The notes below the pieces were generated by a model that saw only the letters and a list, made by a program, of their open reading frames with translations, had not been told where the DNA came from and searched no databases. A DNA stretch of 64,000 nt from a bacterium. Its GTDB lineage: Bacteria; Bacillota; Clostridia; Christensenellales; DTU072. Each line of letters starts with the position of its first letter. The stretch's first letter is position 1. The DNA lies in assembly GCA_963644945.1 (NCBI GenBank), contig CAVIQK010000003.1, forward strand, positions 54,401-118,400, written 5' to 3'. Below, piece after piece: positions 1,434 through 46,320 of the stretch. The translations under genes were made by a program, and so were the position numbers.

Positions 1434-4400
1434 ATGAATGACACCAAAAAGTTTCAAAAACTGACGGTAGGTATATTTATTATACTGATTTTAGCTATCA
1501 TGCTCGGGACGACTACGGTTCCGAGCAATGTTGCTTATGCCGAAGAAAAAACATCGGTTTACAACGTTGTCATTTTTTTAAGATTTGAAGATTCTCCGAC
1601 TTTTGACCAAAACACCCTAGAAAACTCCGAGGTTTTCGACATTTATTCCAATGATATAGAAAAGGTTAGAAGCCTAAAAAGATTTTATTACAAAATGTCC
1701 GACGGACAAATTGAGATAGAAAATTATTTCGGTTTTTCCGATTCTTCTTCCACCACTTACTATGTTTATAATGCAGAGGGTGCTTCTTCTAAATGGAATG
1801 AAAAAACTCAAAGAACGGAAAAAGAAAAAGAATTGATTTCCAAGGCTTTACAAGGCTTTGAAAACTCTTATCGTGATAAATCTTTGCCGACCTCTCTTTT
1901 CGATGGAAACAATGACGGTAAAATAGATTCGGTATCGTTTATCGTGCTTGACAATACTCCGTCTTCTAATGACAATTGGAACACTCTAATTTGGCCACAC
2001 TCATGGGATTGTCAATCGATCGGTGTTTCCGATTCGCTGACCTTTTCGGACGGATCTTTGCAATGTGGAGATTATACGTTTACATTTGCGTATCCGCTAG
2101 ACGGGAACTCGAATTTTGCTGTAGCCGCTCACGAAATGGGACATGTTTTCGGTGTAAGTGACTATTATTCATACAAAGAAACATATCACCCTGCGGACGT
2201 TTACGATTTGATGGATAAATCTACTGCGGATATATATTCCCCCTCGTTTATGTTGGTTTACACAAGGGATCGCTATCTAAAATCATATTCGGGAAGAATA
2301 GAAACTTTGTCCGCAGGACGAACAATAACATTGACAGCCACAACCGAAGCCACAACTAGCGAAGACATCGTTGCCATAAAAATAGAAACCGACAAAGCAG
2401 GTGTCTATATTATGGCGGAATATCGTATAAATTATAGTTCGTCGGGCTATGACAATGCCCTTCCCTCGTCCGGTGTAATAGTATATAAGGTTGATGAAAC
2501 CGTCGTAGATACAGACGGAAGCCCCTTAGGCAACATGAATGCCAGAAAGATAAGTCCGTACACGAATCACGAAGTGCTTGTTTACAACGATACGAGTTTG
2601 TCGTCGTCTGCCATGCTAAAAGCCGGACAAAAAAGACAAGGAATAAGAATAGCGCTTACCACCCTTTTAGATATAAATATAAGTGTTGTAGAACTAAACG
2701 GTAGTCAAGCAACAATCGAAGTGTCGGGTTCATATTTCAATCAAGAAACAACCCCTAAAACCTCGATTGCGATAGACCAAGCAGAATATCTTTCGGACGA
2801 AACAAGTGGTCATTACGGAGTAGATGTTTCGCTTACGGTGTTAAGAAAAAGTTTGTTTGAAAAAGTTTCTCTACAACTAGCCGACAAAGACGGCAATGTT
2901 ATTTGCGAAAAAATCGGCTACTCCAAAGATATCAAGTCAACACAATGTTCGGTTTTGTTCGGAGTGTGGCAAGACAACAACGAAGCCTTTTCGGGCGGAG
3001 TGATAGAATCAAAAGAACCGGTATATTTATATATGAGTATATACGGTACCGATGGCACGAAATATGACGTCTATACAAAAGACTCTCCTCGCACCATAAA
3101 TTTAGGCTCTTACACGTGGGACGAAATTTACGGCACTGCCACATATATAAAAGGCACACTCACAATAGATGCCACAAAAGATGCCGAAGGAGTAATTATA
3201 GGGAATGTTAAAGACGGACAGTTTTGTATCGATGACCTAGATGTAAAAATATTTACGAATTCAAAATCGGGTGAACAAGAAATCTCCCTTCTAAGTAGTG
3301 GTGATTTTTATAGAGAAGTTATTTTCCCTTCGACTTATTCGGGTGCGGGTACTTATACCGCAACAATAAACATTTATTACAAAACCGTCAAATTGGGTTC
3401 CAAAACAATAAGTTTTAGAATACTAAAATCTATATCTACACTAAAAATCACGCCGAGCGTAAAAGATAAAGTTAGCGTTATCGGAGACGAGATTTATTTG
3501 TATTTGGAAGACTTTTTAGAATCGTCCATTTCGTTTGATTATGAGGTTACATATCAAGACAATACGAAAGAAACATTCCCTCTTTATATCCAAAAAAGTA
3601 AGGTTTACGATTCTCCTCTCGTTGTCGAAAAGAAGATAGGCGACAGTACGAAAACTGTCAAATTCTACTTTTATGACACCGTAAAAACATTAAATGTTCC
3701 GTCGAGTTTTTACTACGGCACTACGCTTCCGGTAAGCCTGGATGCCGAGTTTTATTCGGGTAAGACTCAAAAAGTAAATGTCGTTTACGGAGACTATAAA
3801 AACAAAAATGCTGTCGGTAGTACTCAAAACGTATCGATTACGGTTGACCTAGGATACGACTACACAAAACTTCCTTATAAAAAAGAATTTTCGACTACAT
3901 GCCAAATAGAAACATTGGACGGAGTCTATTCGATAAACGAAATAGGGTTAGACAAAGAAACTTTTTCTTATGGCGAAACTGTCACCAACGAGATTTTGTC
4001 CTATGTTACATATACATCCTATAAATCTTATTTTGACGGCATCGACGAAATCTCGGTCTTAGACGATCTTACATCCGTTTTGGTTTTGCCTTTGGACTAC
4101 TCGTCGCTTGTCGGCAATATGAGAGAATCGTCCGGGGTGCTAACAATAAAAATTGATAATACAACAAAGAGTGTAAATGTCAACATTGTCAACGACATAA
4201 AGGAAATCAAAAGCAATCTTTCTACCAACGAAAGAAGATCGGTAGGAGATTATTCTTCGTTTGAGTATCAAGTGTATTATGCCAACGCATACAACGAAAA
4301 AATTTCGGTGTCGCTCTCTTCCGGACTAATAAAAATTGGCGGAAGCCCCGTAAAAGAAACGATGCTTAACAGTATAGGTGTCCATCAAATAGAAGTTTTC

Positions 4401-5183
4401 AACCCGTCAAAACCCCAAGAAAAATTATATTCGGGTGTCTTTACGGTGTACGAAGAATATATAAATGTGTCGGGCATATATGACGGCGAAAAAGAAGTCG
4501 TAATTACTATTTCCTATGGTGACTACCCTAATCTTTCCGGTTACACTCTCAAATATACAACTTCAAAGGGCGAAAAGTCTTTCGTTCTTACCGAAAATAC
4601 TTACAAATTAAGAAATGTCGATTCGATTCTAAAAGAAGGTGTGTCGAAAACGACCGTTGAAATTCCCGTTTTGCAAAAGTCGGCAAAATTTGGAGAAACC
4701 ACAATTACATTATCCGTAGAAAATAAAATAAATACCGACATATTGACAGTAGGAGACGATTCAATTGTAGATTATGACAACAGCATCGTCTATCTAAAAA
4801 AGGAAATGACCTACAAAGATTTTATTAAAATCGCCAAAACCTCCACAAGATTTACCATTTATGTCGAAGATATTTTTAGATATGTAGGAGGCAAAGACTA
4901 CTATCTCTATATAAAAAATTCGGGCGGTATGACCGTTGCCAAATTTAGAGTTATTTTGCTAGGCGACGCCACCGGTGACGGAAGACTGGGAGAAGACGAC
5001 ATTTACGAATATGCCAATGCCATTATAAAAGGTGCCGACGATTATATTGACAAAAGTATCGGAGGACTCGATATCGACTCATTTGTAAAACGTATTTTGA
5101 AAAATAATTTAGATCCGTTGACCATTGCCAAAATTTTTGTAAAGGATATAGGAGGGAGAAAAGAATATGAAGAATATTGCTAA
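1434..5183 (+). CDS. Secreted M6-family (immune inhibitor A-like) zinc metalloprotease, 1249 aa, with long beta-rich C-terminal extension and dockerin-like C-terminus
   Basis: N-terminal signal peptide (KLTVGIFIILILAIMLG...NVAYA-EEK). It has the IWPHSW motif and the HExxH zinc site HEMGHVFGVSDYY typical of M6 peptidases. The C-terminus has a Ca-binding dockerin-type loop, LLGDATGDGRLGEDDIYEYANAII. It starts 10 nt after the previous stop. Confidence 0.75.
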   Translation: MNDTKKFQKLTVGIFIILILAIMLGTTTVPSNVAYAEEKTSVYNVVIFLRFEDSPTFDQNTLENSEVFDIYSNDIEKVRSLKRFYYKMSDGQIEIENYFGFSDSSSTTYYVYNAEGASSKWNEKTQRTEKEKELISKALQGFENSYRDKSLPTSLFDGNNDGKIDSVSFIVLDNTPSSNDNWNTLIWPHSWDCQSIGVSDSLTFSDGSLQCGDYTFTFAYPLDGNSNFAVAAHEMGHVFGVSDYYSYKETYHPADVYDLMDKSTADIYSPSFMLVYTRDRYLKSYSGRIETLSAGRTITLTATTEATTSEDIVAIKIETDKAGVYIMAEYRINYSSSGYDNALPSSGVIVYKVDETVVDTDGSPLGNMNARKISPYTNHEVLVYNDTSLSSSAMLKAGQKRQGIRIALTTLLDINISVVELNGSQATIEVSGSYFNQETTPKTSIAIDQAEYLSDETSGHYGVDVSLTVLRKSLFEKVSLQLADKDGNVICEKIGYSKDIKSTQCSVLFGVWQDNNEAFSGGVIESKEPVYLYMSIYGTDGTKYDVYTKDSPRTINLGSYTWDEIYGTATYIKGTLTIDATKDAEGVIIGNVKDGQFCIDDLDVKIFTNSKSGEQEISLLSSGDFYREVIFPSTYSGAGTYTATINIYYKTVKLGSKTISFRILKSISTLKITPSVKDKVSVIGDEIYLYLEDFLESSISFDYEVTYQDNTKETFPLYIQKSKVYDSPLVVEKKIGDSTKTVKFYFYDTVKTLNVPSSFYYGTTLPVSLDAEFYSGKTQKVNVVYGDYKNKNAVGSTQNVSITVDLGYDYTKLPYKKEFSTTCQIETLDGVYSINEIGLDKETFSYGETVTNEILSYVTYTSYKSYFDGIDEISVLDDLTSVLVLPLDYSSLVGNMRESSGVLTIKIDNTTKSVNVNIVNDIKEIKSNLSTNERRSVGDYSSFEYQVYYANAYNEKISVSLSSGLIKIGGSPVKETMLNSIGVHQIEVFNPSKPQEKLYSGVFTVYEEYINVSGIYDGEKEVVITISYGDYPNLSGYTLKYTTSKGEKSFVLTENTYKLRNVDSILKEGVSKTTVEIPVLQKSAKFGETTITLSVENKINTDILTVGDDSIVDYDNSIVYLKKEMTYKDFIKIAKTSTRFTIYVEDIFRYVGGKDYYLYIKNSGGMTVAKFRVILLGDATGDGRLGEDDIYEYANAIIKGADDYIDKSIGGLDIDSFVKRILKNNLDPLTIAKIFVKDIGGRKEYEEYC

Positions 5184-5880
5184 AATTGTTGTCCTCTTTA
5201 TTTTCGTGATGTTGTCTCTTTCTTTAATATCATGTTCAAATAGCGATGTCGATACACTTGCATTTTTAGACGACTACCCTGTAAAAACCACTTTTTCACC
5301 GGATGAAAGTTTCCCCGAGATAAAGATTTTGGCGACAACCAAAAGTGGCAAAAAAGAAGAAATATCGGTAGGGAAAGACATGTTGTCGGGATTTGACACC
5401 TCTCTTTCGAGTGCTACCGAAAAAGAATATAAGATAACCTATAAAGGCAAGACATTGACCGGCAAATATACTGTTTCGGGCAAAGTAAACACCAAAATAC
5501 GTTTGACTTATCAAGTGGAAAACAACGGAGACGAAAAAATAATCACGGTCGCAGCCCAAAACTTCTCCGGAGACGGTTTTTATGCCTTGACAGGGGCAAT
5601 ATCTTACTACAAAGAAGTTGTCAAAGAACTAAACATTGTGTCGTCCAATGCTCAATACGAGGTGGCAAGCGAAGAGAAAAACAATCAGACCTCTTTTGTA
5701 TATTACAACAAAGACGGTACTGCAAGAATTTCTGCGGACTGCGAACTATTCAAAATCAAAGTAAAACATTATGACGGGATCGAAGTATCCTTGACAATTG
5801 GCGGACAAAAAGATTATTATATAGAAATGTCAGAGGGCAAAGGTATATATTACGTGCCGTCTTTGACTATAACACTATGA
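5167..5880 (+). CDS. Lipoprotein with Big_3-like Ig domain, function unknown
   Basis: Signal peptide plus lipobox (MLSLSLISC-SNS). A GGAGGGAG Shine-Dalgarno lies upstream, and the gene overlaps the protease gene by 17 nt. An Ig-like segment (KEEISVGKDMLSGFDTS...YKITYKGKTLTGKYTV) is shared with the lipoproteins at 31166 and 38008. Confidence 0.65.
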   Translation: MKNIAKIVVLFIFVMLSLSLISCSNSDVDTLAFLDDYPVKTTFSPDESFPEIKILATTKSGKKEEISVGKDMLSGFDTSLSSATEKEYKITYKGKTLTGKYTVSGKVNTKIRLTYQVENNGDEKIITVAAQNFSGDGFYALTGAISYYKEVVKELNIVSSNAQYEVASEEKNNQTSFVYYNKDGTARISADCELFKIKVKHYDGIEVSLTIGGQKDYYIEMSEGKGIYYVPSLTITL

Positions 5881-7514
5881 CGTACAACAAAATTATTACA
5901 CCAAATGAATTATGGCAAGATTTCGATACCGAAAAACCTGCCGAAATTTTATATAAAGCTCGAGAAGAAGACCGTTTTGAGTCGGATGTCTATGAGATTT
6001 TGTGGCGTGCCTTTTCCGAGGCAGACGGCAGTCTAGACATCGCATCGAGATTGTATATCCCTAGCGGTGCAAAAGACGTAATAATCTTGACGGAAGATAC
6101 CGAAGGATTAGAAAGAGTCGTAGAACTCGAAAGAGCCCTTCGTCTAGGTTGTGCCGTCATGGTCGTAGATTATTCCGACATGCACAATTGGGGGACGAAA
6201 TTCCCCGAGAGTTTGTCTTATGGCACGATTGAAAAGAGGGGCGATAGAATGGCTCGTTTTGAGCATACCCCGTATGACAGTTGTCAGTTTTTATATGCAA
6301 GAATTTTGTCAAGAGCGATAAGTGTCGCCAAAGAACTATTTGAAGACGGCAAAGTCATTGTTTGGGCGCTAGGCGATTCTGCCGAATTTTGTATTCAAGG
6401 CGTTGCAATGGACAAACATGCCGACGGACTGATTATCGTCAACGGCAACACGTATGAAGAATATAACGATCTCAACCGCTACGACGACGAAAAACCCGAA
6501 CTATCTCAAGAAATGCTTATTTGGTTGTCGTCGGTCTCGGCAATTGCCTATGTAAAACATTTAGATTGTCCCGTATTGTCGGTTTCAGGGAGCAACAGCC
6601 TTGATTGTGATCCCGATAGACTAGAAGATTTCTTCTCGTCCATGAAAGAGTCTTTGACAATTTTGGTGCGAGCCGGAGAACGCAATGCTTTGGACCAAGG
6701 TTGTTTTGCGACAATTTCAAAATGGATAGAAGGAATAAGAGCAGGAAGAACATTCCCGACGATCCCGACTGCCGAAGTCAAAGTCTATGACGGCGGTTCG
6801 GTGGCGGTTTCGGTCAAAGCCGATTCCTCGTCAATGATAGAATCTACAACCGTATATTATGCATTCAATGAGAAAAATCGTCGGTTTAGATTTTATAAAA
6901 AATGCCCCACCACGTGTATTTCAATGGCGGGCGAATATATGGCGAATTTCAAATTAGGTGGCAATGCTACATCTGTTTTTGTGTATGCTACCGTCAATTA
7001 TTTGGACGGACTCTCGATTTCCTCATTTATGAATTACGAGCCACTCACCGAGAGCCACTCCGACATTGCTAGACACAACGTGGTTTTGTCGGGTGCCAAA
7101 TCTTACGATGAATTCGAAATAGATCGCAATTCTTTTCTCTTGATAGAAAACGAGAAAAAGATTATAACAACCGGACTCGGCCTAAAAGGCGTGGCTGCCA
7201 AAAACGGAGGTCTGCGTACTTTTTCGGTAAATGACGGAGAAATTGGCGAAAATGCATCCATTTTGCAAATGGATTTTTATAGCGAAAAACAAAAAATGGT
7301 TGTCGTCGAAATCGAAAAATGCGAAGACGGCATACTTACAAAGTACTCCGCAAGTGCCGAAATAGGAGGATCTACCAAGGTGTTTATTCCGGTTAGATTT
7401 TCTCCGAGCGACTTCAAGACAAAGGACCGTATCCCCCTAGAAGACTTCAATGACCTAAAAAGTCTGTCTATTCTTACCCCGGGAGTAGGAGTGGGCAATA
7501 TTTTATTCGTATGA
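5877..7514 (+). CDS. Hypothetical protein, 545 aa; possible alpha/beta-hydrolase-like N-terminal half (weak)
   Basis: Long ORF with ATGA start/stop overlaps at both ends (5877 and 7511). The N-terminal half loosely resembles esterase/dienelactone-hydrolase folds (VIILTED...VMVVDYSD...VIVWALGDSAEF), but no clean GxSxG nucleophile elbow is visible. No signal peptide. Confidence 0.5.
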   Translation: MTYNKIITPNELWQDFDTEKPAEILYKAREEDRFESDVYEILWRAFSEADGSLDIASRLYIPSGAKDVIILTEDTEGLERVVELERALRLGCAVMVVDYSDMHNWGTKFPESLSYGTIEKRGDRMARFEHTPYDSCQFLYARILSRAISVAKELFEDGKVIVWALGDSAEFCIQGVAMDKHADGLIIVNGNTYEEYNDLNRYDDEKPELSQEMLIWLSSVSAIAYVKHLDCPVLSVSGSNSLDCDPDRLEDFFSSMKESLTILVRAGERNALDQGCFATISKWIEGIRAGRTFPTIPTAEVKVYDGGSVAVSVKADSSSMIESTTVYYAFNEKNRRFRFYKKCPTTCISMAGEYMANFKLGGNATSVFVYATVNYLDGLSISSFMNYEPLTESHSDIARHNVVLSGAKSYDEFEIDRNSFLLIENEKKIITTGLGLKGVAAKNGGLRTFSVNDGEIGENASILQMDFYSEKQKMVVVEIEKCEDGILTKYSASAEIGGSTKVFIPVRFSPSDFKTKDRIPLEDFNDLKSLSILTPGVGVGNILFV

Positions 7515-8077
7515 AAATAGAATCGAAAAGCATAAAAGGATTTATAATTTTTGCTTTAATACTTATTATAATTGTCGCTTTGGCATTTTTCATGTTTGCG
7601 ACGATTGACGTTGAAGGCAAGTCAATGCAACCCACCATTGAGGACGGGGATAAAATTTTTCTAATACGAAAATTTGTAGAATATAAAAAGGGCGATGTCG
7701 TGGTATTTATCGGAAGCGACAACAAAGCACTCGTAAAGAGAATTATTGCAACCGAAGGCGACACCGTAGAACTCAAAAAAGACGAAAACGGCACCTTTAG
7801 ATATTATGTCAACAGTGTCCTAGTAGAAGACGAATATGTAAATTTGTCGACATATACATCCCCTACCGCAACAAAATTTGAATATAAAATAGTGGTCCCC
7901 GACGACGAATTTTTTTATCTGGGGGACAACAGACTCGTGTCAAAAGACAGTAGCGAAATTTCCAAAAACGACGACGGCACTCTAAGTGTCACGTTCGGCA
8001 TTTATGAAAATATAATCGGTAAGGTTTTATTTAGATATAATTTTGACGGCAAATTTGTCGTAAAAGGCGTCGAATAA
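7511..8077 (+). CDS. lepB: Signal peptidase I (S26, P-type Ser-Lys dyad)
   Basis: N-terminal TM anchor, catalytic Ser box GKSMQPTI, Lys box LVKRIIATEGDTV, and box E YLGDNRLVSKDS. Confidence 0.85.
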   Translation: MKIESKSIKGFIIFALILIIIVALAFFMFATIDVEGKSMQPTIEDGDKIFLIRKFVEYKKGDVVVFIGSDNKALVKRIIATEGDTVELKKDENGTFRYYVNSVLVEDEYVNLSTYTSPTATKFEYKIVVPDDEFFYLGDNRLVSKDSSEISKNDDGTLSVTFGIYENIIGKVLFRYNFDGKFVVKGVE

Positions 8078-8078: not shown

Positions 8079-8987
8079 CTAGCGACGCAAATCTTTCCCT
8101 GTAAGTTCCAACATAACCGCTCCTCTTAGACGAGAGAAAATTCTTTCGTCGTACCTATCTAGGAGCATGTCGGGAGACAAATTTGTGGTTATAAAAGTGG
8201 CTTTCTTTTGTCTTTCGGTAAAGAGATTATATAGGTACTCGCAAGTCACGTTTTTGTAGATTTGTTCAACACCTAGATCGTCTATAAACAAAACATCCGC
8301 ATCATAAATTTCAGAAAGCATAGAGAATTGATCTTTGATATAAGAGGTGTGCGCTTTCAAAAACAACTTGTTGAGAGAAAATGCGTTGAAGAATGCGACG
8401 TTAAATCCTTCCTTGATAAGGTAGGTTGCAAGTATACTCAATAGGTAGGTTTTTCCGACACCGGTTTTTCCTGATATGGTTATCAAATTCTTTGTGATAT
8501 TAGGAAAATTTTCTCCCCATTTTTTCACAAATGTAAAGACTTTTTCGGCATTGATTTTATCTTGACCTTGATATTTTTCTAAATCAAAATCGTCAAAAGT
8601 TTTTCCGAAAACTTGTATATCGCAAGACTCTTCGGCGATACGTTTTATGTCGGGAATAACACAGTCGCAAAGTCTTCCGTCGATTACGCCTTGATCGTTA
8701 CAAAGTGTACAGTGCGGTGTATGTTTTAGATCGCTTTCCGTTTTTCCGTATTTTGCAAGTTGCTTAAAATATTCGGTTTCGGCTTCCTTAAGTCTTGTTT
8801 CGGCAACCGAAACATCGGAGTTAAAGATATCGGCTCTGGCTTTATCGAATTGTGCCGATCTAAAATTTCCTCTTGCCGATTTGAAATTCGGATCCTTTTC
8901 GAGTTCCTCGATTTCTTTTGCTATTCTAAATTCGTCAAGTTCTCTCTGTTCTTTTTTTATAGACTTTGCAATTTTTACGTAATCCAT
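8079..8987 (-). CDS. Replicative helicase loader, DnaI/DnaC-like AAA+ ATPase
   Basis: Walker A GKTGVGKTYL and Walker B VLFIDDLG. The N-terminal Cys cluster (HCTLCNDQG...LCDC) resembles the DnaI zinc domain. It sits directly downstream of a DnaD-domain gene with a 1-nt gap. Confidence 0.75.
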   Translation of the reverse strand: MDYVKIAKSIKKEQRELDEFRIAKEIEELEKDPNFKSARGNFRSAQFDKARADIFNSDVSVAETRLKEAETEYFKQLAKYGKTESDLKHTPHCTLCNDQGVIDGRLCDCVIPDIKRIAEESCDIQVFGKTFDDFDLEKYQGQDKINAEKVFTFVKKWGENFPNITKNLITISGKTGVGKTYLLSILATYLIKEGFNVAFFNAFSLNKLFLKAHTSYIKDQFSMLSEIYDADVLFIDDLGVEQIYKNVTCEYLYNLFTERQKKATFITTNLSPDMLLDRYDERIFSRLRGAVMLELTGKDLRR

Positions 8988-8988: not shown

Positions 8989-10419
8989 TTATACCTCTAT
9001 ATCGTTAAGATCGGTAAAGACTCCGGCAAGTTCGTCTTTCGTGTAGTCCCTTCTTTGCATAGGTGCTTTTGTAGGAGTGTTTTGGTTGAGTTTTTCAAAT
9101 TTTTCTTTGGCTTCTTCGAGGCTTACCGAAGGCGTATCTTTTACGGCAATAAGCATTCTGTTCATTTGCGAAAACGGGAAGTTTCTGCCTATACACATTT
9201 TTGCCGAAAGTTCTATTACGTCATAAGGTAGTCCCCATTCCGAAGTCCATGTTGAATAAAATTCTCTGTCCCTTGCCGTCACATATCTAGATGCTCCTGC
9301 CGTCTCCAAAAGATCTTTGATTTCATCGTCGGTAGAAACTTTTTTCAGTACGTATTGGTCGATTGCCTCTTTAGTGACGAGTCCGAGTTTATAAAACTTT
9401 TTAACTACCTCGTTGAGTCCGTCAAGAGTTTTAACATTGGATATGAACGAATAATGCGCAAGCGATAAAAGTGCATCTTCTGTAAAACCTTCCTCCTCCC
9501 AAGGACGAATATAGGTGTTTACTACGACATCAAGATCCGCATAGTAAGCCCCGATACCTTTAAGAACATTTTGTGCGGTTTTGGTGAGATCTTTTTTCAT
9601 CTTACCGTATTCGTCAATTTCGTAAGGGGTATGCGCTCCCGAACGTTTTAATTCTGTCATAAGGTTATCGAGTTTAGTAAGCCCACCTTTCTTTTTAAGA
9701 AGTCTTGCCGCCGTCAATATTCCGTCATGACCGAATCCCATTTCGATCCATTTTCTGTATAAGTCTCTCGCATCTATATCGGGAGCAGATTTTAGTCCCA
9801 ATGTCTCGTAAACCATTCGCAGTTCTTCACTGTTGTTTTCGAGTTGTTCGATTTTCCCTTCGGCATCCTTATACGTCTTGATGCCTTCGTTTATCCATGT
9901 GTTGGCAACCGCCAAAATATAAGAAGTGCTTATTTTTTCGTTTTTATATCTCTTGCAATATTCCATTATGACGAGTAGTGCATTTGGCTCTATTCCCGAG
10001 AACTCTATTAGTTCAAAATATCTGTTAAGTTCTTGCGGTGTAAGAAAACGATCGGGGAAAATTCTCGTAATATCCTCTACAAAAGACGCATACTTTTTAA
10101 CATCGTAATTGACGATTTTCGGCATAGGATTTTTTGGTGAAACGTAAGTAAGACTTATCGGTTCCGATTTTGAATTCATTATAAGTCCTTCTTTCTCCCA
10201 ATAAAGGAAGGCTTCTCTTACACGTTCCTCGGACATTTTGAGATTAAAAGCAATACTTTCTATGGTGGTGTCTTCTCCCGCATAGAGAGATTTAAGTCCG
10301 GTCAAATACACTTTGACGAAATCTCCGTCGGCAGAGGGCAAATACCCCGCAATGAAAATATTATCTACGGGAGTGAATCCGTTTTTGATTATATCGGAAT
10401 GCAGTTTTAGTTGCGACAT
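8989..10419 (-). CDS. DnaD-domain replication initiation/membrane attachment protein (DnaB/DnaD-like)
   Basis: Repeated DnaD-like C-terminal domain segments (YFELIEFSG..ALLVIMEYC; VYETLGL...DLYRKWIEMGF; LLSLAHYSF). I moved the start to the ATG at 10419 (MSQLKLHS), which is preceded by GAGGTGAA. The track start at 10482 adds an implausible hydrophobic extension. Confidence 0.7.
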   Translation of the reverse strand: MSQLKLHSDIIKNGFTPVDNIFIAGYLPSADGDFVKVYLTGLKSLYAGEDTTIESIAFNLKMSEERVREAFLYWEKEGLIMNSKSEPISLTYVSPKNPMPKIVNYDVKKYASFVEDITRIFPDRFLTPQELNRYFELIEFSGIEPNALLVIMEYCKRYKNEKISTSYILAVANTWINEGIKTYKDAEGKIEQLENNSEELRMVYETLGLKSAPDIDARDLYRKWIEMGFGHDGILTAARLLKKKGGLTKLDNLMTELKRSGAHTPYEIDEYGKMKKDLTKTAQNVLKGIGAYYADLDVVVNTYIRPWEEEGFTEDALLSLAHYSFISNVKTLDGLNEVVKKFYKLGLVTKEAIDQYVLKKVSTDDEIKDLLETAGASRYVTARDREFYSTWTSEWGLPYDVIELSAKMCIGRNFPFSQMNRMLIAVKDTPSVSLEEAKEKFEKLNQNTPTKAPMQRRDYTKDELAGVFTDLNDIEV

Positions 10420-10545
10420 ATTATCGTTCACCTCATTTATTATTATAATTATAATACCACAAGAAGTGTGAATTGCCAACAATTTAGTGATTTTTTCACA
10501 AATTTCAAAAACGACACTTCTAAAATGTTTCTTTCGGAGGCTTGT

Positions 10546-13500
10546 ATGGAACTAAAACAACTCACTCTCGGATTTTCGTCAAAAAACGTGACAGAATTTG
10601 ATTTTGCACGCATCAACGATACGTTGTCTGTTGCTACCGGTGGCAATACCAAAGTGTTTCGTGACGGACTTTCGACTGCACTGTTTGGTTTTTCTGGAGA
10701 AAACGGTGACTCTGCACCGTTCAAATTTACCAAAATCACATTTGAAGAAAAAGATGCCGAACATATTTTGATTAGAGTCTTAGAAAAGGACGACGAAAAG
10801 ACCATCTATACCGAAGACGGCAAAGAAAAACCGATAGAAGATTTCTATGCAATACTCAAAAAAGAACTGAAAGCAGATCCGGAACTAGTGAAGAAATATT
10901 CGTTTGCCGAAGAAGATCTCGTCAACGAAGTGTTAGAAAAAGGTCTTGCCGGATATTTGTCTTATATTCCCGATATCGAAGAAAGAATAGAAGAAAGTTA
11001 CAAAAATGCTTGCGAAAGGGAACAAGAATTAGAAGAAAGACTTGTCCACTTGTCCAATTTTGAAGGAGTCGGTGGCGGACGTAATGCCCTTGTTGAGATA
11101 GACAAAGATATTCACGTTTTGGAAAATGCTCTCGACAATATAAGCGAAGACATAGCAAGAGGAGAGTCCGAAACCAAAACGGGCTACGAAGTACTCAAAA
11201 ATTCTGCAAGATTACAAGAACTTGAAGATATGGAATCAGACATGAACCACATCGAAGAGTACATCAATCTTTCAAAGAAAGCCAAAAACATTTTGGATCT
11301 CGAGGCTAGAGTTATCAAACTTGAAAATTCTGCGGTTTCCGGAAGAAGGACCGACGGGGACATTGCTCTACTCAAAGCAAAAGTTGAAAATCTTAATCGC
11401 CAAATCGCCAAATTTTCCGAAGAACAACGTAAATCCGAAGGCGAAGTTATCTATTATGCCGAAAAATTACAAGAACTTCGTGGCGACATAAAAGGTCTTG
11501 TCGAAGTCACCGCATCGGGTTCGACCGACGACGTAGAAACCGAAGTCGGCGAATATTACGAAGAATTCAAAAATGCCAAAGAGTCATACGAGGAAAGACT
11601 GAAAAAGGTAGAACTCGAAAGGAATGCTCTCTATGAGCATATCGCCGAGTTGGAAACAAGAAGAGGAAAAATCGCCTATCCTGTTGCTTACAGAAAAGCA
11701 GTCATTGATGCAGTGACATTAGAAGATCGTATGGCGGACATGAGCGCCCTTGCCGAAAAAGAAGAAAAAGTCATAGGCGAAATTGTCGAAGAAATAAAGA
11801 AAAAAGAAGAAGAATTCAAAAAACTTTCGGATAAAGCCGAAGATTTGGAAAAAGCGGCGGCAGAACTTCTTGCCGAGATATCCGGAGATTACGAAAGCAA
11901 GGAAGATCGCTTTAATGCCGAAAACGTAGAGAGAAATAAACTTTACAGCAATCACATAATCGTCAACGAGCAAGTTAGAGAAATTAAAGCCATCGAAGAT
12001 AAAATCAAAAAACTTCAAGAAAGCCAAAGAGAATTCCAAGACAAGAGAGCAAAACTCAACGATGCCAAAGTCGAGGTCGAACTCCACAAGGCAAAACTCA
12101 ACAAGCGTCTCCGTCAAATGGAAGACAAGTACAACGAGAGAATTGCCGAAAATCTCTATGCTCAACAAGTCGAATCTTTGAATTATGGCGACAGATGTCC
12201 TATATGCGACGGTTTTGTTATCAAGAAAAACGCAAAACTTCGTTTCATGAAAATGGATGACATTATTGCCGATATGGATGCAATAAAGAAAGCCATAGAA
12301 GAAGACGATTCCAAAATATCCAGAGTCCTTCTAAAACTAGGTGCATATATGTCAGCATCGGCATCCGGCGATGCTTATATCAATTCACTCGAAGACACTA
12401 GACAGAAAAAACAAGATGCGGTAGATGCATTCTGTAAAGAAAGCGGAGTCGAAACCCCTCCGGAACTCTCCGATAAACTAAGAAAAGCCATAGAAAATCA
12501 AAGGGATACCAACGAGAAGGCTGAAAAATATCACGATTTGGAAGGCCGTCTTGCATCTGTTTTGGAAGCGAAAGGAAGAGTTGCTTTCCAAATCAAAAAG
12601 ATGACAGAGTTAGAACTCGGACGTCACCAAAGAGCGCTTGACGATTACAAGTGTTCGGTTAGATCCGCAGTTGACGAATATCGTCCCGTTATGAAAGTTT
12701 TAGGCGGAGAAAAGGGCAAAGATGTCTATCCGAAACTTATGCTCGTAGATAAAGAATTGGAGACAATATCGGATGACCTAGAAAGTGCAAGAAAAAGACT
12801 TTCCGCAACCGACAAAGAAAGAGAAGACATCAACAAAACTCTTGCAATATTTGACGGTAGAGATCTCCCCATCGGAGACGGTGGCGAAAATGTCAATGTA
12901 GCGGGACTCGGTGCCAAGGTTATTGCCAGAAGGTTGAAAGCAATGACCGACGAAATCAAAAAATACGAAGACGAATATGAAAATGCCAAAGTCCGTTTTG
13001 TTGCCGCAAAACGTGTCGTTGACAACTATTCAAGAGAGAAATACAACATTGAAAAAGACCTTCTCGTTTCCGATGAATCGGGAAAGGCAGTCGTATCTTC
13101 CGACGACTCGTTGAGAAAAGAAATCGACGAAGGAGTCAAATCTCTCGGCATGCAATCTGTCGAAGAACTTAAAGACGTGGTTATAGCCGACGACGACGAA
13201 AGAGCCTTGGAAGCAATAATTGCAGGATTTAGAGGCGAACTCAACATGCTAAGGGGAGCCACTTCCGTTGTAAAAGAAACTCCCGAAATCGATGTTGAGG
13301 AACTTAAAGACAGAAGAAAACAAATACGTGAAGCGATCTCCGAAATGTATCAAAAGAGAGCAACGCTTAAAATCGGTATTGATGCAGCAGATAAAAATGA
13401 TCGTCAAAAAGACGAGGCACTACTACGTTTGAAGAGAGTAAGAGCCGACATAAGAGAACTTGACACAATCAAAACCTATATTGAGGACGGAACTCTAAAT

Positions 13501-13866
13501 GTTATGTCGTTGTTTGTAAGAGTGTTACAAGATGCGTCCAATGCAGCGTTTAGCATGACAAAAGGTGCATACAGCCTCGAATTTTCCGCAAACGGAATAG
13601 ACGTCGTGGACAACATAAAAGAGCAAACCATCCCCGAAAACAAACTCACCGATTATCAAAAAACGGTTAGATATCTTGCACTTTCTTCTAAAATCGCAAG
13701 TGTTATCGATTCGATAATCGACACCGACAACGATGTATTCTTTATGTTGAATTCGTTTGAAACCGACAAGAACTATGCAGAACTTGCCATCAATTTCTCG
13801 AAAGACAGAAATATTACGGTTGTTGCCGATGAAGATATAAAGACCGTCTTATCGGAAGTATTGTAA
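10546..13866 (+). CDS. Rad50/SbcC-like long coiled-coil protein with central CxxC zinc hook and degenerate ATPase motifs
   Basis: Start set at ATG 10546 (MELKQLTLGF) behind GGAGG. About 1000 aa are heptad-rich E/K/L sequence. CPIC sits at 12196..12207, residue ~551 of 1106, exactly at the midpoint. The N-terminal P-loop position reads ATGGNTKV instead of GxxGxGK[ST]. The C-terminal signature and Walker B positions read LTDYQ and FFMLNSFE instead of LSGGE and hhhhDE. Confidence 0.6.
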   Translation: MELKQLTLGFSSKNVTEFDFARINDTLSVATGGNTKVFRDGLSTALFGFSGENGDSAPFKFTKITFEEKDAEHILIRVLEKDDEKTIYTEDGKEKPIEDFYAILKKELKADPELVKKYSFAEEDLVNEVLEKGLAGYLSYIPDIEERIEESYKNACEREQELEERLVHLSNFEGVGGGRNALVEIDKDIHVLENALDNISEDIARGESETKTGYEVLKNSARLQELEDMESDMNHIEEYINLSKKAKNILDLEARVIKLENSAVSGRRTDGDIALLKAKVENLNRQIAKFSEEQRKSEGEVIYYAEKLQELRGDIKGLVEVTASGSTDDVETEVGEYYEEFKNAKESYEERLKKVELERNALYEHIAELETRRGKIAYPVAYRKAVIDAVTLEDRMADMSALAEKEEKVIGEIVEEIKKKEEEFKKLSDKAEDLEKAAAELLAEISGDYESKEDRFNAENVERNKLYSNHIIVNEQVREIKAIEDKIKKLQESQREFQDKRAKLNDAKVEVELHKAKLNKRLRQMEDKYNERIAENLYAQQVESLNYGDRCPICDGFVIKKNAKLRFMKMDDIIADMDAIKKAIEEDDSKISRVLLKLGAYMSASASGDAYINSLEDTRQKKQDAVDAFCKESGVETPPELSDKLRKAIENQRDTNEKAEKYHDLEGRLASVLEAKGRVAFQIKKMTELELGRHQRALDDYKCSVRSAVDEYRPVMKVLGGEKGKDVYPKLMLVDKELETISDDLESARKRLSATDKEREDINKTLAIFDGRDLPIGDGGENVNVAGLGAKVIARRLKAMTDEIKKYEDEYENAKVRFVAAKRVVDNYSREKYNIEKDLLVSDESGKAVVSSDDSLRKEIDEGVKSLGMQSVEELKDVVIADDDERALEAIIAGFRGELNMLRGATSVVKETPEIDVEELKDRRKQIREAISEMYQKRATLKIGIDAADKNDRQKDEALLRLKRVRADIRELDTIKTYIEDGTLNVMSLFVRVLQDASNAAFSMTKGAYSLEFSANGIDVVDNIKEQTIPENKLTDYQKTVRYLALSSKIASVIDSIIDTDNDVFFMLNSFETDKNYAELAINFSKDRNITVVADEDIKTVLSEVL

Positions 13867-13885: not shown

Positions 13886-14389
13886 ATGAAAAGGCAAAAA
13901 AAACTTTTAGTTTTATGCAGAATAGCGGTAATTGCGGCGATATATTTCGTCGCAACTTATTTTTTAGCCCCCATTTCTTTTGGCGAAATTCAGTTTAGAA
14001 TAAGCGAAGGCATGATGATTCTTCCGTTGTTCTTCCCCGATTCGATTGTAGGTTTGACACTCGGTTGTGTGCTTGCCAATTTAAGTTCCCCGTTTGGAAT
14101 TATTGACGTGGGACTTGGCTCTCTTGCAACGCTTATTGGCGGAATAGGCACGTTTTTCCTTGGGAAAATTCTCAACGGCAAAAAAATGCGTCCCTTTATA
14201 TCCCTAATTCCGCCGGTCGTGTCCAATGTTCTTATAGTGCCTCTCGTATGGCTTTTGACGGGTACGGACGACAGTTATTGGGTACTCGCCGCATCCTTGT
14301 TTGTTTCGGAAACAATATCAGTTTATGCGATAGGTTTGCCCCTTTATTACAACATTGACAGGATTTTGCAACGAAGCAAACCTGTCTAG
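13886..14389 (+). CDS. queT: Queuosine precursor transporter QueT (ECF S-component-like)
   Basis: 167 aa with about 5 TM segments. Strong resemblance to the QueT family: APISFGEIQFRISEGMMILPLFF, GLTLGCVLANLSSPFGIIDVGLGSLATLIG. Confidence 0.8.
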   Translation: MKRQKKLLVLCRIAVIAAIYFVATYFLAPISFGEIQFRISEGMMILPLFFPDSIVGLTLGCVLANLSSPFGIIDVGLGSLATLIGGIGTFFLGKILNGKKMRPFISLIPPVVSNVLIVPLVWLLTGTDDSYWVLAASLFVSETISVYAIGLPLYYNIDRILQRSKPV

Positions 14390-14494
14390 CAACAATTTTC
14401 AACAAATTTTACTTGTCATTAAATATTGTTTGTTATATAATAACTATACTTGTATTATTATAAAGTGCGCACGCACACGGAGAATAAGAAGAAG

Positions 14495-16768
14495 ATGAAG
14501 AAAAAGATCTTAGCATTTGTACTTATCATTGTGGTTTTCGCCTTGGCATTATCGGGTTGTTCATTTATAAAACTCAATGCCGACAGACAATCGTCCAGAG
14601 TTATTCGTACCGTCACCAAAGACAACGTATCTCTCAACATCACATATACGGAACTCAAAGATTATACCAATAGCCTTCTTTACGGAAGTTTTTATAGTTA
14701 TGTTTCCCAAGGTTATATGTCGGTTTCGGATGTCGTAGATTATGCCCTTGCAGCCAAAACTCAATCAAAGGCATTGACGATCACTGCGATGGAATATTTG
14801 AAAACTCTCAACAGACAAAACCTCGTAGGCGATGCAATGTACAACGAATTGGTCAACAAATACGGCTCGGACAACATCAACAAACAAGTTTTGTCCGCAT
14901 TGACCATTGCCGAATATTACGATGCAATAGCGAGTGTCAACGAAAGTTTAGATTCGTTGGTTGAAAATTACAAAGAAGAATATTACAACAACCAAAGAAA
15001 AGACACCGTATATTCTGCCGACCTTCAAGATGTCAAAGAAATCAAGATCGTCCAAGGTGTCGAAGATGAATATTATGTAGGTTCCGTCGGACCTAAAACC
15101 GAAGACATCAAAATCGAAGTTTCCTACACCGAGGAATCTAAAAAAGAGGCTATCACGCTTCCTATAACAAGTAGCATGATTTCTAAAGCCTTCTCGTCAA
15201 GTTCTGCAGCCGAAGACAGCGAATTTATCGTAAAACTCGACGTCGAAGTAATGAAAGACGGCAAATATACAGCCAACGTTGTGACTGCGACCAAAACTTA
15301 CAATGTCGTAGAAGCCCCCACAACCAGAGAAAATGAAGAAGACGAAAAAGTCGCTCTTGAAGAAATAAGATATAAGTCCGCAAGTGAAATTGCTTACTGG
15401 GCAGAAACAAACGGTGTCGATTACGGCTACGAAATCCCCGCAATTGTTGACCTCGATGCTCAAAAGACGAGTTCGGATGCGGCTACCGCTTATGCTTGGA
15501 CAGAAGTAGAAAAATATCTAAAAGATGCCGGCAGAACGATGGATTATTACTATGCAAGTGCAATAGAATCTGAAGTTATATCTGCATATAAAGCCGAAAT
15601 CAACAAGTTGAGCGAAGAAGAATTTTCCGCACAACTCGATACCGAAGTTGCCAAGAAAATAACCGAACTTCAAAACGACAGCATCAAAAACTACAAAGAT
15701 AAAACCGTCGCCGCTCAAAAAACCGCCTTCATCTCGGCAATAGAAGATACACTTGATTCTTTATATTATGTCCCCGAAATCGGCCAAGTCAAAGGTTATT
15801 TCTATGTTTCTCACCTTCTCATAAAAGATTCTTCAATAGGTGACGAATTCACAGAGCAAGGTTCCGACGATCAATTGATTGCCGACAATATCGGCACAAT
15901 GACTGTTGACGAAATCAACACCAGATTTGATGCATCCTTCGAATGTGACGGTTGGGAATATAACGAAGAAGGTGTGTATGTTCACAACGAATCTAAATGT
16001 TCCGACAAAGAAACACAAGACAAATCTCAATGCAAATCAATTGCATATCTAGCGAAAGACGTAAAGGCTACGACCGTACTTGACAATCTTGCAAAAGAAT
16101 TGAACGGCGAAACCGACGGAGCGAAGAGAGTTGCTATATTCAATAATTATGTAGAGAAATATGGTCAAGATCCCGGAATTTTATCTAAGACCAACGGTTA
16201 TCTTATTACTCCCGACGTAGATGATATGTCTTGGGTTGACGGATTCGAATCTCTCGGAATTTTGCTCGGAGCATCCGCAAACTATCAAAATGTAGGCACC
16301 TACAAAGTTGACAAGGATGCGGCAGTTGCATCTTTCAAATCTCTTTATGGTCTTGACGATGCAAAGGCAAATGAACTTTATGAAAAGTATAATAAAAATG
16401 TCAATGTATATACAGCCGATGACGGTTCCGCACTTTATTACACAATAGCCAACACCGTAAGTTCCGGCGGATATGCAGGCATCCACGTAATGATGGTTAC
16501 ATTCTTCCCCTTCTCGGCAGATTGGACTGCAGACTCCGTAATAAATATTGACGGCGACAAACTTTCCGACTCTGTAAGAGAATCTACACTTGACACCAAA
16601 CTTGACGACGATTATACCGCAAAGACCGATTGGTTGTCCGACTATGAAACAGATGACAACGGATATACCATTACACTCGGCAAGAAATATACCGAAAAAG
16701 GATTCTCCGTCAAGGACCACAAGAAGATAGGTGATTATATCTCCGATATAGTTGAGTCAATTGGTTAA
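14495..16768 (+). CDS. Large lipoprotein, function unknown (757 aa)
   Basis: Start moved to ATG 14495 (MKKKILAFVLIIVVFALALSGC-SF), giving a signal peptide with a lipobox. The rest is hydrophilic D/E/K/Y-rich sequence with no catalytic motif that I recognise. Confidence 0.6.
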   Translation: MKKKILAFVLIIVVFALALSGCSFIKLNADRQSSRVIRTVTKDNVSLNITYTELKDYTNSLLYGSFYSYVSQGYMSVSDVVDYALAAKTQSKALTITAMEYLKTLNRQNLVGDAMYNELVNKYGSDNINKQVLSALTIAEYYDAIASVNESLDSLVENYKEEYYNNQRKDTVYSADLQDVKEIKIVQGVEDEYYVGSVGPKTEDIKIEVSYTEESKKEAITLPITSSMISKAFSSSSAAEDSEFIVKLDVEVMKDGKYTANVVTATKTYNVVEAPTTRENEEDEKVALEEIRYKSASEIAYWAETNGVDYGYEIPAIVDLDAQKTSSDAATAYAWTEVEKYLKDAGRTMDYYYASAIESEVISAYKAEINKLSEEEFSAQLDTEVAKKITELQNDSIKNYKDKTVAAQKTAFISAIEDTLDSLYYVPEIGQVKGYFYVSHLLIKDSSIGDEFTEQGSDDQLIADNIGTMTVDEINTRFDASFECDGWEYNEEGVYVHNESKCSDKETQDKSQCKSIAYLAKDVKATTVLDNLAKELNGETDGAKRVAIFNNYVEKYGQDPGILSKTNGYLITPDVDDMSWVDGFESLGILLGASANYQNVGTYKVDKDAAVASFKSLYGLDDAKANELYEKYNKNVNVYTADDGSALYYTIANTVSSGGYAGIHVMMVTFFPFSADWTADSVINIDGDKLSDSVRESTLDTKLDDDYTAKTDWLSDYETDDNGYTITLGKKYTEKGFSVKDHKKIGDYISDIVESIG

Positions 16769-17778: not shown

Positions 17779-17807
17779 TTAAAATATCCCATAAGATGTG
17801 TTATAAT
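17779..17807 (+). promoter_or_regulatory. Putative extended -10 promoter of addBA (TGTTATAAT), ATG 6 nt downstream
   Basis: TGT+TATAAT at 17799..17807 and a weak -35 TTAAAA at 17779..17784 with a 17-nt spacer. There is no Shine-Dalgarno before ATG 17814. Confidence 0.4.
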
Positions 17808-17813
17808 AAAACC

Positions 17814-20800
17814 ATGATAAAGATATTTGATGGAAATACAGGCAATTTTGCCGCAGAAAAAGCAATTTTGACCATAAAAGAACACGGTCTAACACAAGGG
17901 AAACATGTTGTAATTGTTCCCGACCGTTTTGCAATGTCCGTTGAAAAAGAAATTTTTGATTTGTTGGACATCCCCGGTTCGTTTAATATTGACGTCGTTT
18001 CGTTTACCCGACTTGCCGTCAAAAAATTAAAGAACAATGCAAAAAAATGTCTGACAAAAGAGGGCGCAATCGTACTCACGACCAATATTTTGTTGCGGAA
18101 GAAAGACGAACTCCAATTTTTCTCCCTAGACGGCAATAGAAGATCTTTGGCAAAAGATATATATGCGGTTATTGCATCTCTAAGGACAAGTAGAATTTCG
18201 GCAGACACCCTAAAAAAAGAGTTCAACGGCGAAGGCGATTCTCTTTCAAGAAAATATCACGACCTTGCCTTGATTTATGAAGAGTACGAGAAATCTCTCG
18301 ATGAAATCAACAATGCCGGAGACACTTTGACAAGACTTGCCACGTATGAAAAATTGATCCCGTTTGATAAAGATTTAGAAAATACGCATTTTTATATAAT
18401 CGGTTTCAATTCGTTCAAAGGCAGTGAATTAAGTATTATTTTAGAACTAGGCAAATATGCGAAATCAGTCACGATTGCACTAAACGGCGGAAGCGGTGGC
18501 CCCAACAACAATTTGTTCTCGAAGAAAACGATTGAAAAATTTAAGGGGCTTGCCACTGTAGAGCGAGTAGAAAAATCTTTGCCCGAGCCTATCGATTGCA
18601 TTTATAAGACGATCTTTTCGTACAGTAAAAGAGAGAACCAAACCCTAAATCAAAATGACCGGATACAGGTATTCAAAGAGATCGCCCCGCACTCCGAAAT
18701 CAGAGGAATCGCTCTCGAAATAAAGTCCCTTATAAAGAAAGGTTATAGGTATAAAGATATAGCCCTAGTGACTCACGACGATAGTTACAAAGATGTCATA
18801 GACGGAGTATTTTCAAGACTAGAAGTCCCCGTTTTTATCGACAGAAAATATCCGTTGAAAGAAACTTTATTATCTAGACTTATCGAAAATTATATTCAAC
18901 TAAACACCTCGGGGTTTGAAAGAAAAAGATTTTACGATTTTGCGACAAATCGCCTTTTAGGGTTCCAATACAGTGACATTGAGAGCCTAAACGATTGGTT
19001 GATGTCAAGCAATATCAACCATAGCGAAATAATTAAAAAAGATTTTGGCAAAAGCGAACCGTCTAAAAATGTTCTCAATACTCTTGATTCCGTCTTGAAA
19101 TATATAGAACTTTTACCGGACAAATTTACCGTTTCCGAGGGAATAGAGAATCTTAGAAATCTCACCTCAAAAATCGATTTTTCTATACTCGAAAAGATCT
19201 TCTCCGATGATGGTTTTAACGACGAAAAACTTTACGAAATCAACAGTAGGGCGCAAGAACTTTTAGACAATGAATTTGAAGAATTTTTGCGTCTTGACGA
19301 TAAAAGACAGATTACCCCGAAAGAATTTTTGGATATGGTAAAAGGTGCCATTGACTCCGTCGAAATCTCGCTTATCCCCAATGTCGCCGATGCCGTTTTT
19401 GTCGGCACCAACGAAGAAAGCCGATTCTTTGACAAGAAGATAATTTTTATAGCGGGAGCATCCGAAGGCAAAATGCCTCGCACATCAAGTTATCATGCGA
19501 TTCTTCCCGAAAAGGATATAAACTTGTTCCATAGCAAAAATTTGGAAATATATCCGACACCTTTGGAAATAATTAGAGAAGATAAAGGCTCCCTTGCCGA
19601 GTTGCTCACGATGGCGACCGACAGAATCTATATTTCCTATTCGGAATATTCTCTTCTAGGAGTCCCCGAGACCGCCGGAGAGTTTTTCAAACAAATAGCA
19701 TCGATCTTAGGAGTTACCGAATATTCAAAACTTTCCGACAAATTCGTTGTTGATGGCAAAAATCTCGCCGATGGTTTAGGGAGCAAGAAAAATGCAAAAT
19801 ACGAATTGTTAAAATCTAAAAACGCTATTCTTTCCGACGAACAAAAATCGTATTTTTCTGCACTAAAAGATTATCTCGAATCGGTCGGCGAAAATATGGA
19901 AACGACAGAAAGACCTTCCGTAAATACTCTCGGCTGTTCGTTTTATAAAGATGACACTATTGTATCCAAAGTCACCGGTATAGAATCATTTTATACTTGT
20001 CCTTATAAATATTTTCTCGACAATGTTGTCATGGTGAAGAATAAAGACGAAGGAAAAGCGGACAGATTGCAAGTAGGTATCATCATCCATAACGTGTTGG
20101 AAAAATTTTTCTCAGATTTTAGTTATAGTTATCTAAATATGACCAAAACGGAGATAGAAGCAAAAACCAATCAAATCCTTGACGAAATTTTTGACAATCC
20201 CGAATTTAGATATCTCGAAAACAAGTCCGGCGAAATTGTAAAAAACAACTTACGTAGAGAAAGTGTGTTCAATATATTGCGACTAGTAACAGCCGTAAAA
20301 CACAGCAAATATCGTCCAAAACACATAGAATATCCTTTCGAAGAGACGATTGGCAAGGAAATTACCCTGAAAGGCAAAATTGATAGAGTTGACGAATATG
20401 ACGGTAAATTCATGATTTTGGACTACAAGACGGGAAGTGTCAGAGACAAGGATGCAACAAAAGGACTTTATTACGGATTTAGTTTGCAACCCTATCTTTA
20501 TGCAATTCCTTTCTTAAAAGAAGGCAAAACGCCGACGGGAGCATTTTATGTTCCGATCAATGAGACGTACAGCAAAGAAGAAGAATCTTTCCGATACACA
20601 GGAAAATATACACCGGATGAAATCGTATTGAAAGAAATTGACAACAGATTGTATGAGGTCGACGGAATTTTGCCGGAGTCTCTATCATTCGACAAGGAAA
20701 GACACCCCGTAGCCCTTAAAAATGCAGGATTTTCAAGCACAGATTTTAAGTTTGCGAGTGACTACGCCCAAGAATTGGTAAAAAAAGCGGTAAACTGTTT

Positions 20801-20927: not shown

Positions 20928-20939
20928 CGAGGAAAATAT

Positions 20940-39607: not shown

Positions 39608-39657
39608 AAAAAAACCTCCATGGGAAATATCCCGTATAAGAGGTCCGAAAAAATAAT

Positions 39658-44844: not shown

Positions 44845-44883
44845 AAAATAAATTTATTGTGTCCGCCGATCTAGTCAAAATTC

Positions 44884-44912
44884 TTTACATCGCAAATCTA
44901 TATGTTTATAAT
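44884..44912 (+). promoter_or_regulatory. Putative promoter of the aspS-asnS-leuS cluster (TTTACA - 17 nt - TATAAT)
   Basis: TTTACA at 44884..44889 and TATAAT at 44907..44912. A ~40-nt leader with AAGGAGAG precedes ATG 44952. Confidence 0.55.
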
Positions 44913-44951
44913 ATTATTTATATGTACAACCTTAAACAAGGAGAGAGTTCT

Positions 44952-46301: not shown

Positions 46302-46320
46302 CAAAAAGGAAAGAAAACTT

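Follow-up and report, generated by a model that had tools for sequence, protein, structure and literature searches.

A putatively ATPase-dead SbcC/Rad50 derivative with a conserved zinc hook, encoded beside helicase-loader genes in Christensenellaceae-like Clostridia

In a 64,000-nucleotide stretch of the clostridial contig CAVIQK010000003.1 (positions 54,401 to 118,400; hereafter the window, in whose coordinates positions are given unless another locus is named), we analysed a gene for a 1106-residue protein which stands divergent from an operon of DnaD-like and DnaI-like helicase-loading genes. The protein is most simply read as an SbcC (the Rad50 of bacteria) that has diverged by vertical inheritance. 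It has lost every nucleotide-handling motif of the head, and no gene for the nuclease partner SbcD accompanies it; the coiled-coil arm and the central zinc hook are kept under strong selection. By descent it is a member of SbcC/Rad50, although it shows none of the functional hallmarks of an ABC ATPase or of one half of an SbcCD complex. We think it fairly probable, judging from the sequence, that the protein acts as an ATP-independent structural tether which dimerises through its zinc hook.

Head domains and lost ATPase motifs

The 1106-residue open reading frame (ORF) proposed in a preliminary description of this DNA begins at the ATG at 10546 and closes with the stop codon that ends at 13866. 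A GGAGG lies 7–8 nt 5' of the ATG and Met1 is invariant in a 48-member alignment of the family, which gives no support to the longer N-terminus of the database gene call P0001 (1141 aa). The Rad50/SbcC layout that had been read by eye holds, as both termini match Rad50 half-head profiles, a long arm lies between them and a CPIC hook sits at the exact midpoint (residues 551–554, nt 12196–12207).

Using a profile of 39 sequences over residues 1–150 (A5), we aligned the whole N-lobe to Rad50 of M. jannaschii (3aux, E 2.9e-14); T. maritima Rad50 (3qf7, E 6.4e-12) and P. furiosus Rad50 (E 1e-4) were also matched. A second profile, of the last ~160 residues (A6), matched T. maritima Rad50 (3qf7, E 1.3e-5). 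The first strand and the ALFG helix lie as far apart (F20–F47) as they do in P. furiosus Rad50 (F21–Y48). The suggestion, raised in the preliminary description, that the termini might lack homology to ABC-type heads is contradicted by these matches. An AlphaFold2 (AF2) model built with the 48-sequence alignment had a mean predicted local distance difference test (pLDDT) score of 78.9, with values of 85–93 in both half-heads; a model from 7 sequences (pLDDT 56.7) was too poor for use. In a Foldseek search, the top matches of the AF2 model were full-length condensin Smc, MukB, Smc5/6, JetC and Rad50 chains along with isolated Rad50 heads. The AlphaFold check of head formation that had been proposed earlier is therefore positive, and the two half-heads are predicted still to fold into an ABC-type head. 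The gene, its half-heads and the positions of the former motifs are as follows.

10546–13866 (+), stop codon included: ATPase-dead SbcC/Rad50-derived gene; intact ORF with ribosome-binding site and start codon, 1106 aa
10546–10965 (+): N-terminal half-head (Rad50 lobe I), residues 1–140; profile A5 against PDB, AF2 pLDDT 85–93
10633–10656 (+): Walker A relic, residues 30–37; ATGGNTKV (family 'tdkdaealk') opposite GENGSGKSS / GKTGSGKS
10912–10914 (+): Q-loop position; E123 where Rad50/SbcC have Gln, in hhalign and HMMER alignments
13501–13863 (+): C-terminal half-head, residues 986–1106; profile A6 against PDB, pLDDT 86–93
13645–13659 (+): signature relic, residues 1034–1038; LTDYQ (family 'lTkEE') opposite LSGGE
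13738–13770 (+): Walker B relic and D-loop-like TDK; FFMLNS opposite FFLDEG, TDK retained
13819–13836 (+): H-loop region, residues 1092–1097; VVADED (family 'livlpede') opposite VIVFITHD, the weakest-aligned motif

The motifs that had been placed by eye were located exactly, and their placement agrees with the profile alignments. The P-loop (ATGGNTKV) stands opposite GKTGSGKS of canonical SbcC, LTDYQ occupies the place of LSGGE, the Walker B stretch FFMLNSFE (residues 1065–1072; DVFFMLNSF opposite DFFFLDEGF) is degenerate and the H-loop has no His. In the window protein the Walker B Asp is replaced by L1068 and the catalytic Glu by N1069; across the family this pair reads LN, ND, EE, DD, AA, GA, RT, etc., so that an acidic pair is not conserved, and a later E-x-D-K is common after the Walker B strand. 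At the Q-loop the family reads 'vidkeeia' opposite YIKQGEIA, in a column that is itself variable. In fact, all five motifs, from Walker A to the H-loop, fall in variable columns and are conserved in no member. The pattern [AG]x4GK[ST] is absent from the entire window protein and from the N-terminal head of all 48 aligned members, and its only two matches in the alignment fall inside the coiled coil (residues 715 and 774). A canonical Walker A or B elsewhere in the protein was looked for and not found.

Conceivably, the head could still bind and hydrolyse nucleotide through non-canonical residues, as the closest clade of the window protein retains G33 and K36 at Walker A positions and the D-loop-like E-x-D-K persists. 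However, G33 and K36 remain only in these closest relatives, K36 being already gone in P0008 (39% identical), all five motif columns vary and conservation along the protein is lowest in the heads; we regard such a cryptic ATPase as very improbable. The net charge of the N-terminal head, which is a crude proxy for DNA binding, is −9 in the window protein (family mean −8.4) and +3 in the canonical SbcC encoded at the corresponding place in a sister lineage, and this would speak, if crudely, against a head that binds DNA as Rad50 does.

Coiled-coil arm, zinc hook and the shift of constraint

The AF2 model places a helical arm region between residues ~141 and 985, its helices running from 144 to 976. 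The long coiled coil of the preliminary description is thus present, although at about 830–845 aa it is shorter than the ~1000 aa first given.

10966–12165 (+): ascending arm, residues 141–540; AF2 secondary structure and Foldseek, with breaks at 257–268, 325–342, 377–379 and 447–451
12184–12228 (+): zinc-hook block YGDRCPICDGFVIKK, with CPIC at 12196–12207; the most conserved stretch of the family
12256–13500 (+): descending arm, residues 571–985; AF2, with breaks at 633–637, 719–723, 771–783 and 845–853

The breaks pair about the hook (257–268 with 845–853, 325–342 with 771–783, 377–379 with 719–723, and 447–451 with 633–637) and the midpoints of the paired breaks sum to ~1084–1111, near twice the hook position. 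Such mirrored breaks fit what is expected of an antiparallel intramolecular coiled coil with conserved discontinuities. At the midpoint, [YF]GxxCP[VIL]C is found in 47 of the 48 aligned members, and the best BLASTP segment pairs the hook block with the hook of the canonical syntenic SbcC, IGDVCPVCENRVIQK. SMC_hinge (Pfam) was not detected, the apex being a 25-residue CxxC loop. A second CxxC (CKEC) occurs at residue ~633, ~80 residues past the hook, in P0003–P0007 only (the clade of the family loci L002 and L003), where the window protein reads FCKESG.

The ratio of non-synonymous to synonymous substitution rates (dN/dS) was not computable owing to the saturation of synonymous sites, and the proportions of non-synonymous and synonymous differences (pN and pS) are given instead. 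Between close pairs, pN was 0.03 in the hook, 0.14–0.17 in the arms and 0.24–0.28 in the heads, with pS saturated at ~0.8. In two canonical SbcC proteins from the sister lineage (L011 and L012, 63% identical overall), the heads are 82% and 88% identical, the arms 55% and 56%, and the hook 60%. This order is inverted in the dead family, where the window protein and that of L002 (60% identical overall) share only 36% and 56% in the heads, 63% in each arm and 90% in the hook. Family-wide, the most conserved parts are the hook and the arm blocks 379–393, 457–487 and 608–622. The hook and the part of the arm nearest to it are under the strongest purifying selection, the heads under the weakest.

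The family and its distribution

We searched 1.84 billion representatives exhaustively with HMMER and obtained 62 proteins, nearly all of 1090–1130 aa and aligned end to end. They make up an unnamed family of about 60 clusters at 50% identity, with intact ORFs of ~1100 aa across them, from metagenome-assembled genomes (MAGs) of Christensenellaceae-like Clostridia (source names: Christensenellaceae MAGs, 'Clostridia bacterium' and Candidatus Stercoripulliclostridium). In the source records the proteins are labelled 'hypothetical protein' or carry an automatic name, either 'Nuclease SbcCD subunit C' or 'SbcCD ATPase subunit'. A word-indexed search with the N-head alignment gave no matches, and a scan of genome contigs with clade-specific peptides gave one locus only. 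Plasmid and phage homologues of the family were searched for and none were found, and the idea of a mobile-element origin was dropped. The literature that we searched holds no description of an ATPase-dead SbcC or Rad50.

No model in Pfam or NCBIfam covers the family. The window protein alone gave only sub-threshold coiled-coil matches in Pfam and NCBIfam (to SbcC, SMC and Rad50 models in the latter) and no match above threshold in the PDB. Eight distant members had no match in Pfam, and profiles from the 7 closest relatives found nothing in the PDB, so that the 39-sequence family profiles were needed. This lack of single-sequence matches is what one would also see for a decaying relic or for a generic coiled-coil protein with a chance CxxC. 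That reading is, however, refuted by the Rad50-head homology that the profiles show for both termini, the near-constant length of intact ORFs across the clusters, a pN far below pS and the midpoint CPxC of 47 of 48 members, and we give it practically no credence.

Probable descent from a syntenic canonical SbcC

An outward search started from the DnaD-like protein of the window identified three loci (L011, L012 and L013) whose DnaD-like homologues are 35–37% identical and which have the same divergent arrangement. The partner there is a canonical operon, in which a Metallophos SbcD gene (388 aa) is followed by that of a 1188-aa SbcC carrying AAA_23, SbcC_Walker_B, GKTGSGKS, LSGGE, FFLDEG and a CPVC at residue 593.

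L011, 1150–5869 (−): canonical sbcD-sbcC operon, divergent from the DnaD-like/DnaI-like operon
L012, 1164–5886 (−): canonical sbcD-sbcC operon, likewise divergent
L013, 340–5173 (−): canonical sbcD-sbcC operon, likewise divergent

The divergent gap is 131 bp in L011 and 126 bp in the window. DnaD-like genes that are more remote (26% identity) stand next to unrelated genes. The syntenic SbcC aligned with the full-length profile of the dead family over ~1035 columns (hhalign 99.6%, E 1.2e-24). In neighbour-joining (NJ) trees of the two neighbour proteins, with 10–11 taxa, the dead loci form one clade (bootstraps 200/200 and 199/200), with the sbcDC loci as its sister group. The preliminary description had reported no SbcD/Mre11 gene next to the hook gene; we detected neither SbcD nor a canonical SbcC in the whole 64-kb window or at the dead-family loci fetched. 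The simplest reading is that of a single event in the ancestor of the clade, in which sbcD would have been lost and the remaining SbcC would have lost catalysis.

The protein could instead be a regulatory or decoy paralogue that pairs through its hook or arms with an active SbcC/Rad50 encoded elsewhere and modulates it. Pairs of an active and a degenerate ATPase are common among ABC proteins, and the hook block, the most conserved part, resembles that of the canonical syntenic SbcC (GDRCPICDGFVIKK vs GDVCPVCENRVIQK). Nevertheless, the dead gene occupies the sbcDC slot rather than adjoining sbcDC, no second SbcC or SbcD is seen in the window or the fetched loci, and the arm length differs by ~60–80 aa from that of the canonical protein. 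We consider a decoy distinctly unlikely.

Neighbouring genes and a possible link to replication

8079–8987 (−): DnaI/DnaC-like AAA+ helicase-loader gene (PF01695, NF005304, PRK08939), in an operon with the DnaD-like gene
8989–10419 (−): DnaD/DnaB_2-domain gene of helicase co-loader type, 476 aa (PF07261, E 2.6e-21); ATG at 10419–10417
10420–10545: divergent intergenic region, 126 bp, with overlapping promoter-like sites on both strands
13886–14389 (+): QueT transporter gene (PF06177, E 1e-41), 19 nt downstream

The divergent arrangement had been described with a gap of ~125 bp and a dnaD-like first gene; the gap, at 126 bp, stands, whereas the 476-aa product has the size of B. subtilis DnaB rather than DnaD. 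Sigma-70-like matches, which are consensus matches only, lie at 10427–10455 on the forward strand (10/12) and at 10479–10451 on the reverse strand (10/12, with TG), and the two promoter-like sites, one for each divergent gene, overlap in their -10 elements. The intergenic region is partly conserved in L001–L003. The DnaI-like loader carries an N-terminal Cys cluster at residues ~92–110, HCTLCNDQGVIDGRLCDC, presumably resembling the zinc-binding N-domain of DnaI.

The divergent DnaD-like and DnaI-like pair is kept in all eight family loci with enough upstream sequence to be scored (the window, L002, L003, L004, L005, L006, L008 and L010), while the downstream genes vary (QueT, ABC transporter, glycosidase, unknowns). 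Between sublineages the DnaD-like proteins are 37–44% identical, the DnaI-like proteins 32–35% and the hook proteins 22–26%, and the three proteins nevertheless group congruently. Along with the overlapping promoter-like sites, these observations would refine the tether model into one in which the dead SbcC cooperates physically with the loaders of DnaD/DnaB-like and DnaI-like type; loading complexes, sister origins or restarted forks could, for instance, be what it tethers. However, in the sister lineage this position is taken by a canonical sbcDC. The adjacency is thus ancestral and older than the loss of catalysis, and synteny passed down from the ancestor or common regulation may explain it; as evidence for a replication role it weighs less than one would think at first sight. 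We therefore hold physical cooperation with the loaders to be possible but rather unlikely. The same modest credence goes to the wider proposal that the clade replaced SbcCD with a nucleotide-independent Rad50 skeleton recruited to a replication-coupled job with the helicase-loading proteins.

Downstream, QueT starts 19 nt past the stop codon, as had been described. The gap contains no terminator-like site and no Rfam riboswitch; a preQ1 riboswitch, a candidate for this place, was searched for in the gap and none was found. QueT is probably co-transcribed with the dead sbcC but is not part of the system. Further downstream, a 772-aa predicted lipoprotein or secreted protein without a family match (14450–16768, +) follows QueT, as it does in L002 and L003. 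About 4 kb downstream lie AddB (ADDB_N and PD-(D/E)XK) and AddA (UvrD helicase and nuclease), at 17796–24440 (+). AddAB was rejected as a functional partner, as it is present in the window and L002 and absent from distant family loci.

Comparison with known systems

The dead protein shares with the canonical syntenic SbcC the split head, the long antiparallel coiled coil and a mid-protein CPxC with a similar flank, and its gene holds the same position divergent from the DnaD-like/DnaI-like operon as in L011–L013. Unlike that SbcC, the dead family has no Walker A, Q-loop Gln, LSGGE, Walker B D-E, H-loop His or SbcD gene, is shorter by ~60–80 aa, has an acidic rather than basic N-head and conserves its hook and arms above its heads. 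Among solved structures, Rad50 of archaea and Thermotoga (3aux, 3av0, 3qf7 and 1ii8) gave the best matches of the half-head profiles and the AF2 head. Rad50 needs ATP-driven head engagement and Mre11; the dead protein has no ATP motifs and no Mre11 gene at its locus. Hinge-type SMC proteins, MukB and JetC, the top full-length Foldseek matches, share the head-arm-apex architecture. They dimerise via a hinge domain and are active ATPases with kleisin partners, whereas the dead protein has a CxxC hook and no hinge.

In B. subtilis, SbcE is of a functional ATPase type and has a central domain of a distinct kind; no sequence match between it and the dead family was seen. SbcE (YhaN) is an SMC-like SbcC paralogue outside the classical SbcCD pair (PMC2811018), and the two are alike as Firmicute SbcC-like coiled-coil proteins without a place in SbcCD. 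LmuB of the Lamassu systems is another case of an SbcC-type hook protein repurposed away from SbcD, being itself SbcC-derived (PMC12663957), and PADLOC LmuB models gave weak matches to the hook and arm region (E 1e-7 to 1e-10). An SMC-like anti-phage role could therefore be imagined. However, LmuB keeps Walker A and B, requires its prototypical Walker A for defence and works with LmuA/LmuC in mobile defence loci (PMC12663957). The dead family has no Walker A or B and no LmuA/LmuC-like effectors next to it; the window gene sits beside dnaD/dnaI and QueT, and the family has a stable housekeeping context, is vertically inherited and gave no plasmid or phage homologues when these were searched for. 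We consider a defence role of this type extremely improbable.

Other features of the window

Several observations concern other parts of the window. A tetrahydrofolate (THF) riboswitch (RF01831, 58 bits) lies at 39660–39763 (−), at the 5' end of a gene for an energy-coupling factor (ECF)-type S-component (39026–39718, −); the listed start of this ORF overlaps the aptamer and the true start is probably further downstream. At 44859–47685 (+), two adjacent, slightly overlapping ORFs of 480 aa each match class II tRNA synthetases (D/K/N type) with an oligonucleotide/oligosaccharide-binding (OB) anticodon-binding domain, an apparent tandem paralogue pair directly upstream of the leucyl-tRNA synthetase gene (47688–50081). 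A run of large proteins almost without family assignment (1249 aa, with an M6 metalloprotease-domain match only, 237 aa and 545 aa) is encoded at 1434–7514 (+) and ends in a signal peptidase I gene (7511–8077); the run is conserved in L002 and L003.

Proposed mechanism and implications

The preliminary description had left the choice between a structural, non-catalytic tether and a very divergent ATPase. The evidence favours the tether, since the motif columns vary rather than being conservatively replaced and since selection has shifted from the heads to the hook and arms. We propose that in ancestral Christensenellaceae-like Clostridia an sbcD-sbcC operon stood divergent from a dnaD-like/dnaI-like operon, that the SbcD nuclease gene was lost, and that the leftover SbcC shed every nucleotide-binding and hydrolysis motif and would no longer bind ATP. 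Two molecules would be joined at their hooks by one shared Zn2+, giving a long nuclease-free tether or scaffold with two arms of roughly 55–60 nm each (an estimate from ~400 helical residues per strand). The acidic, fast-evolving heads may then serve for passive docking, of a protein partner more probably than of DNA, and the conserved interruptions of the arms are possibly further docking or bending sites.

Several points weigh against this tether. The heads remain subject to purifying selection and have a confidently predicted fold, and so serve something specific; the charge argument against DNA binding by them is as crude as net charge itself. One member of the 48, P0061 (1092 aa), has no CPxC, with ~22 residues deleted there and the rest of the protein intact. 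Orthology with the syntenic SbcC is inferred from position and profile similarity, and the neighbour trees are small NJ trees. A canonical sbcCD elsewhere in the same genomes, if present, could make the protein a regulatory paralogue instead of a replacement.

The role of the Rad50/SbcC coiled coil and hook beyond head positioning has been debated for long and, to our knowledge, has so far been approached only with engineered hook or arm mutants. The dead family is a natural converse experiment, in which the motor and the nuclease are gone while arm length and hook remain under strong selection, and this selection has held across lineages whose neighbouring replication proteins are only ~35–45% identical. 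An ATP-independent function of the Rad50 scaffold thereby becomes directly testable. The names 'Nuclease SbcCD subunit C' and 'SbcCD ATPase subunit', under which some databases list these proteins, amount to a systematic annotation error. The family also makes one ask how these gut Clostridia, if they are without SbcCD, cope with hairpins and blocked DNA ends. In essence, if a nucleotide-independent skeleton has indeed replaced SbcCD in this clade, it would be the first natural separation-of-function Rad50, and the zinc hook and coiled coil would have a selectable role of their own.

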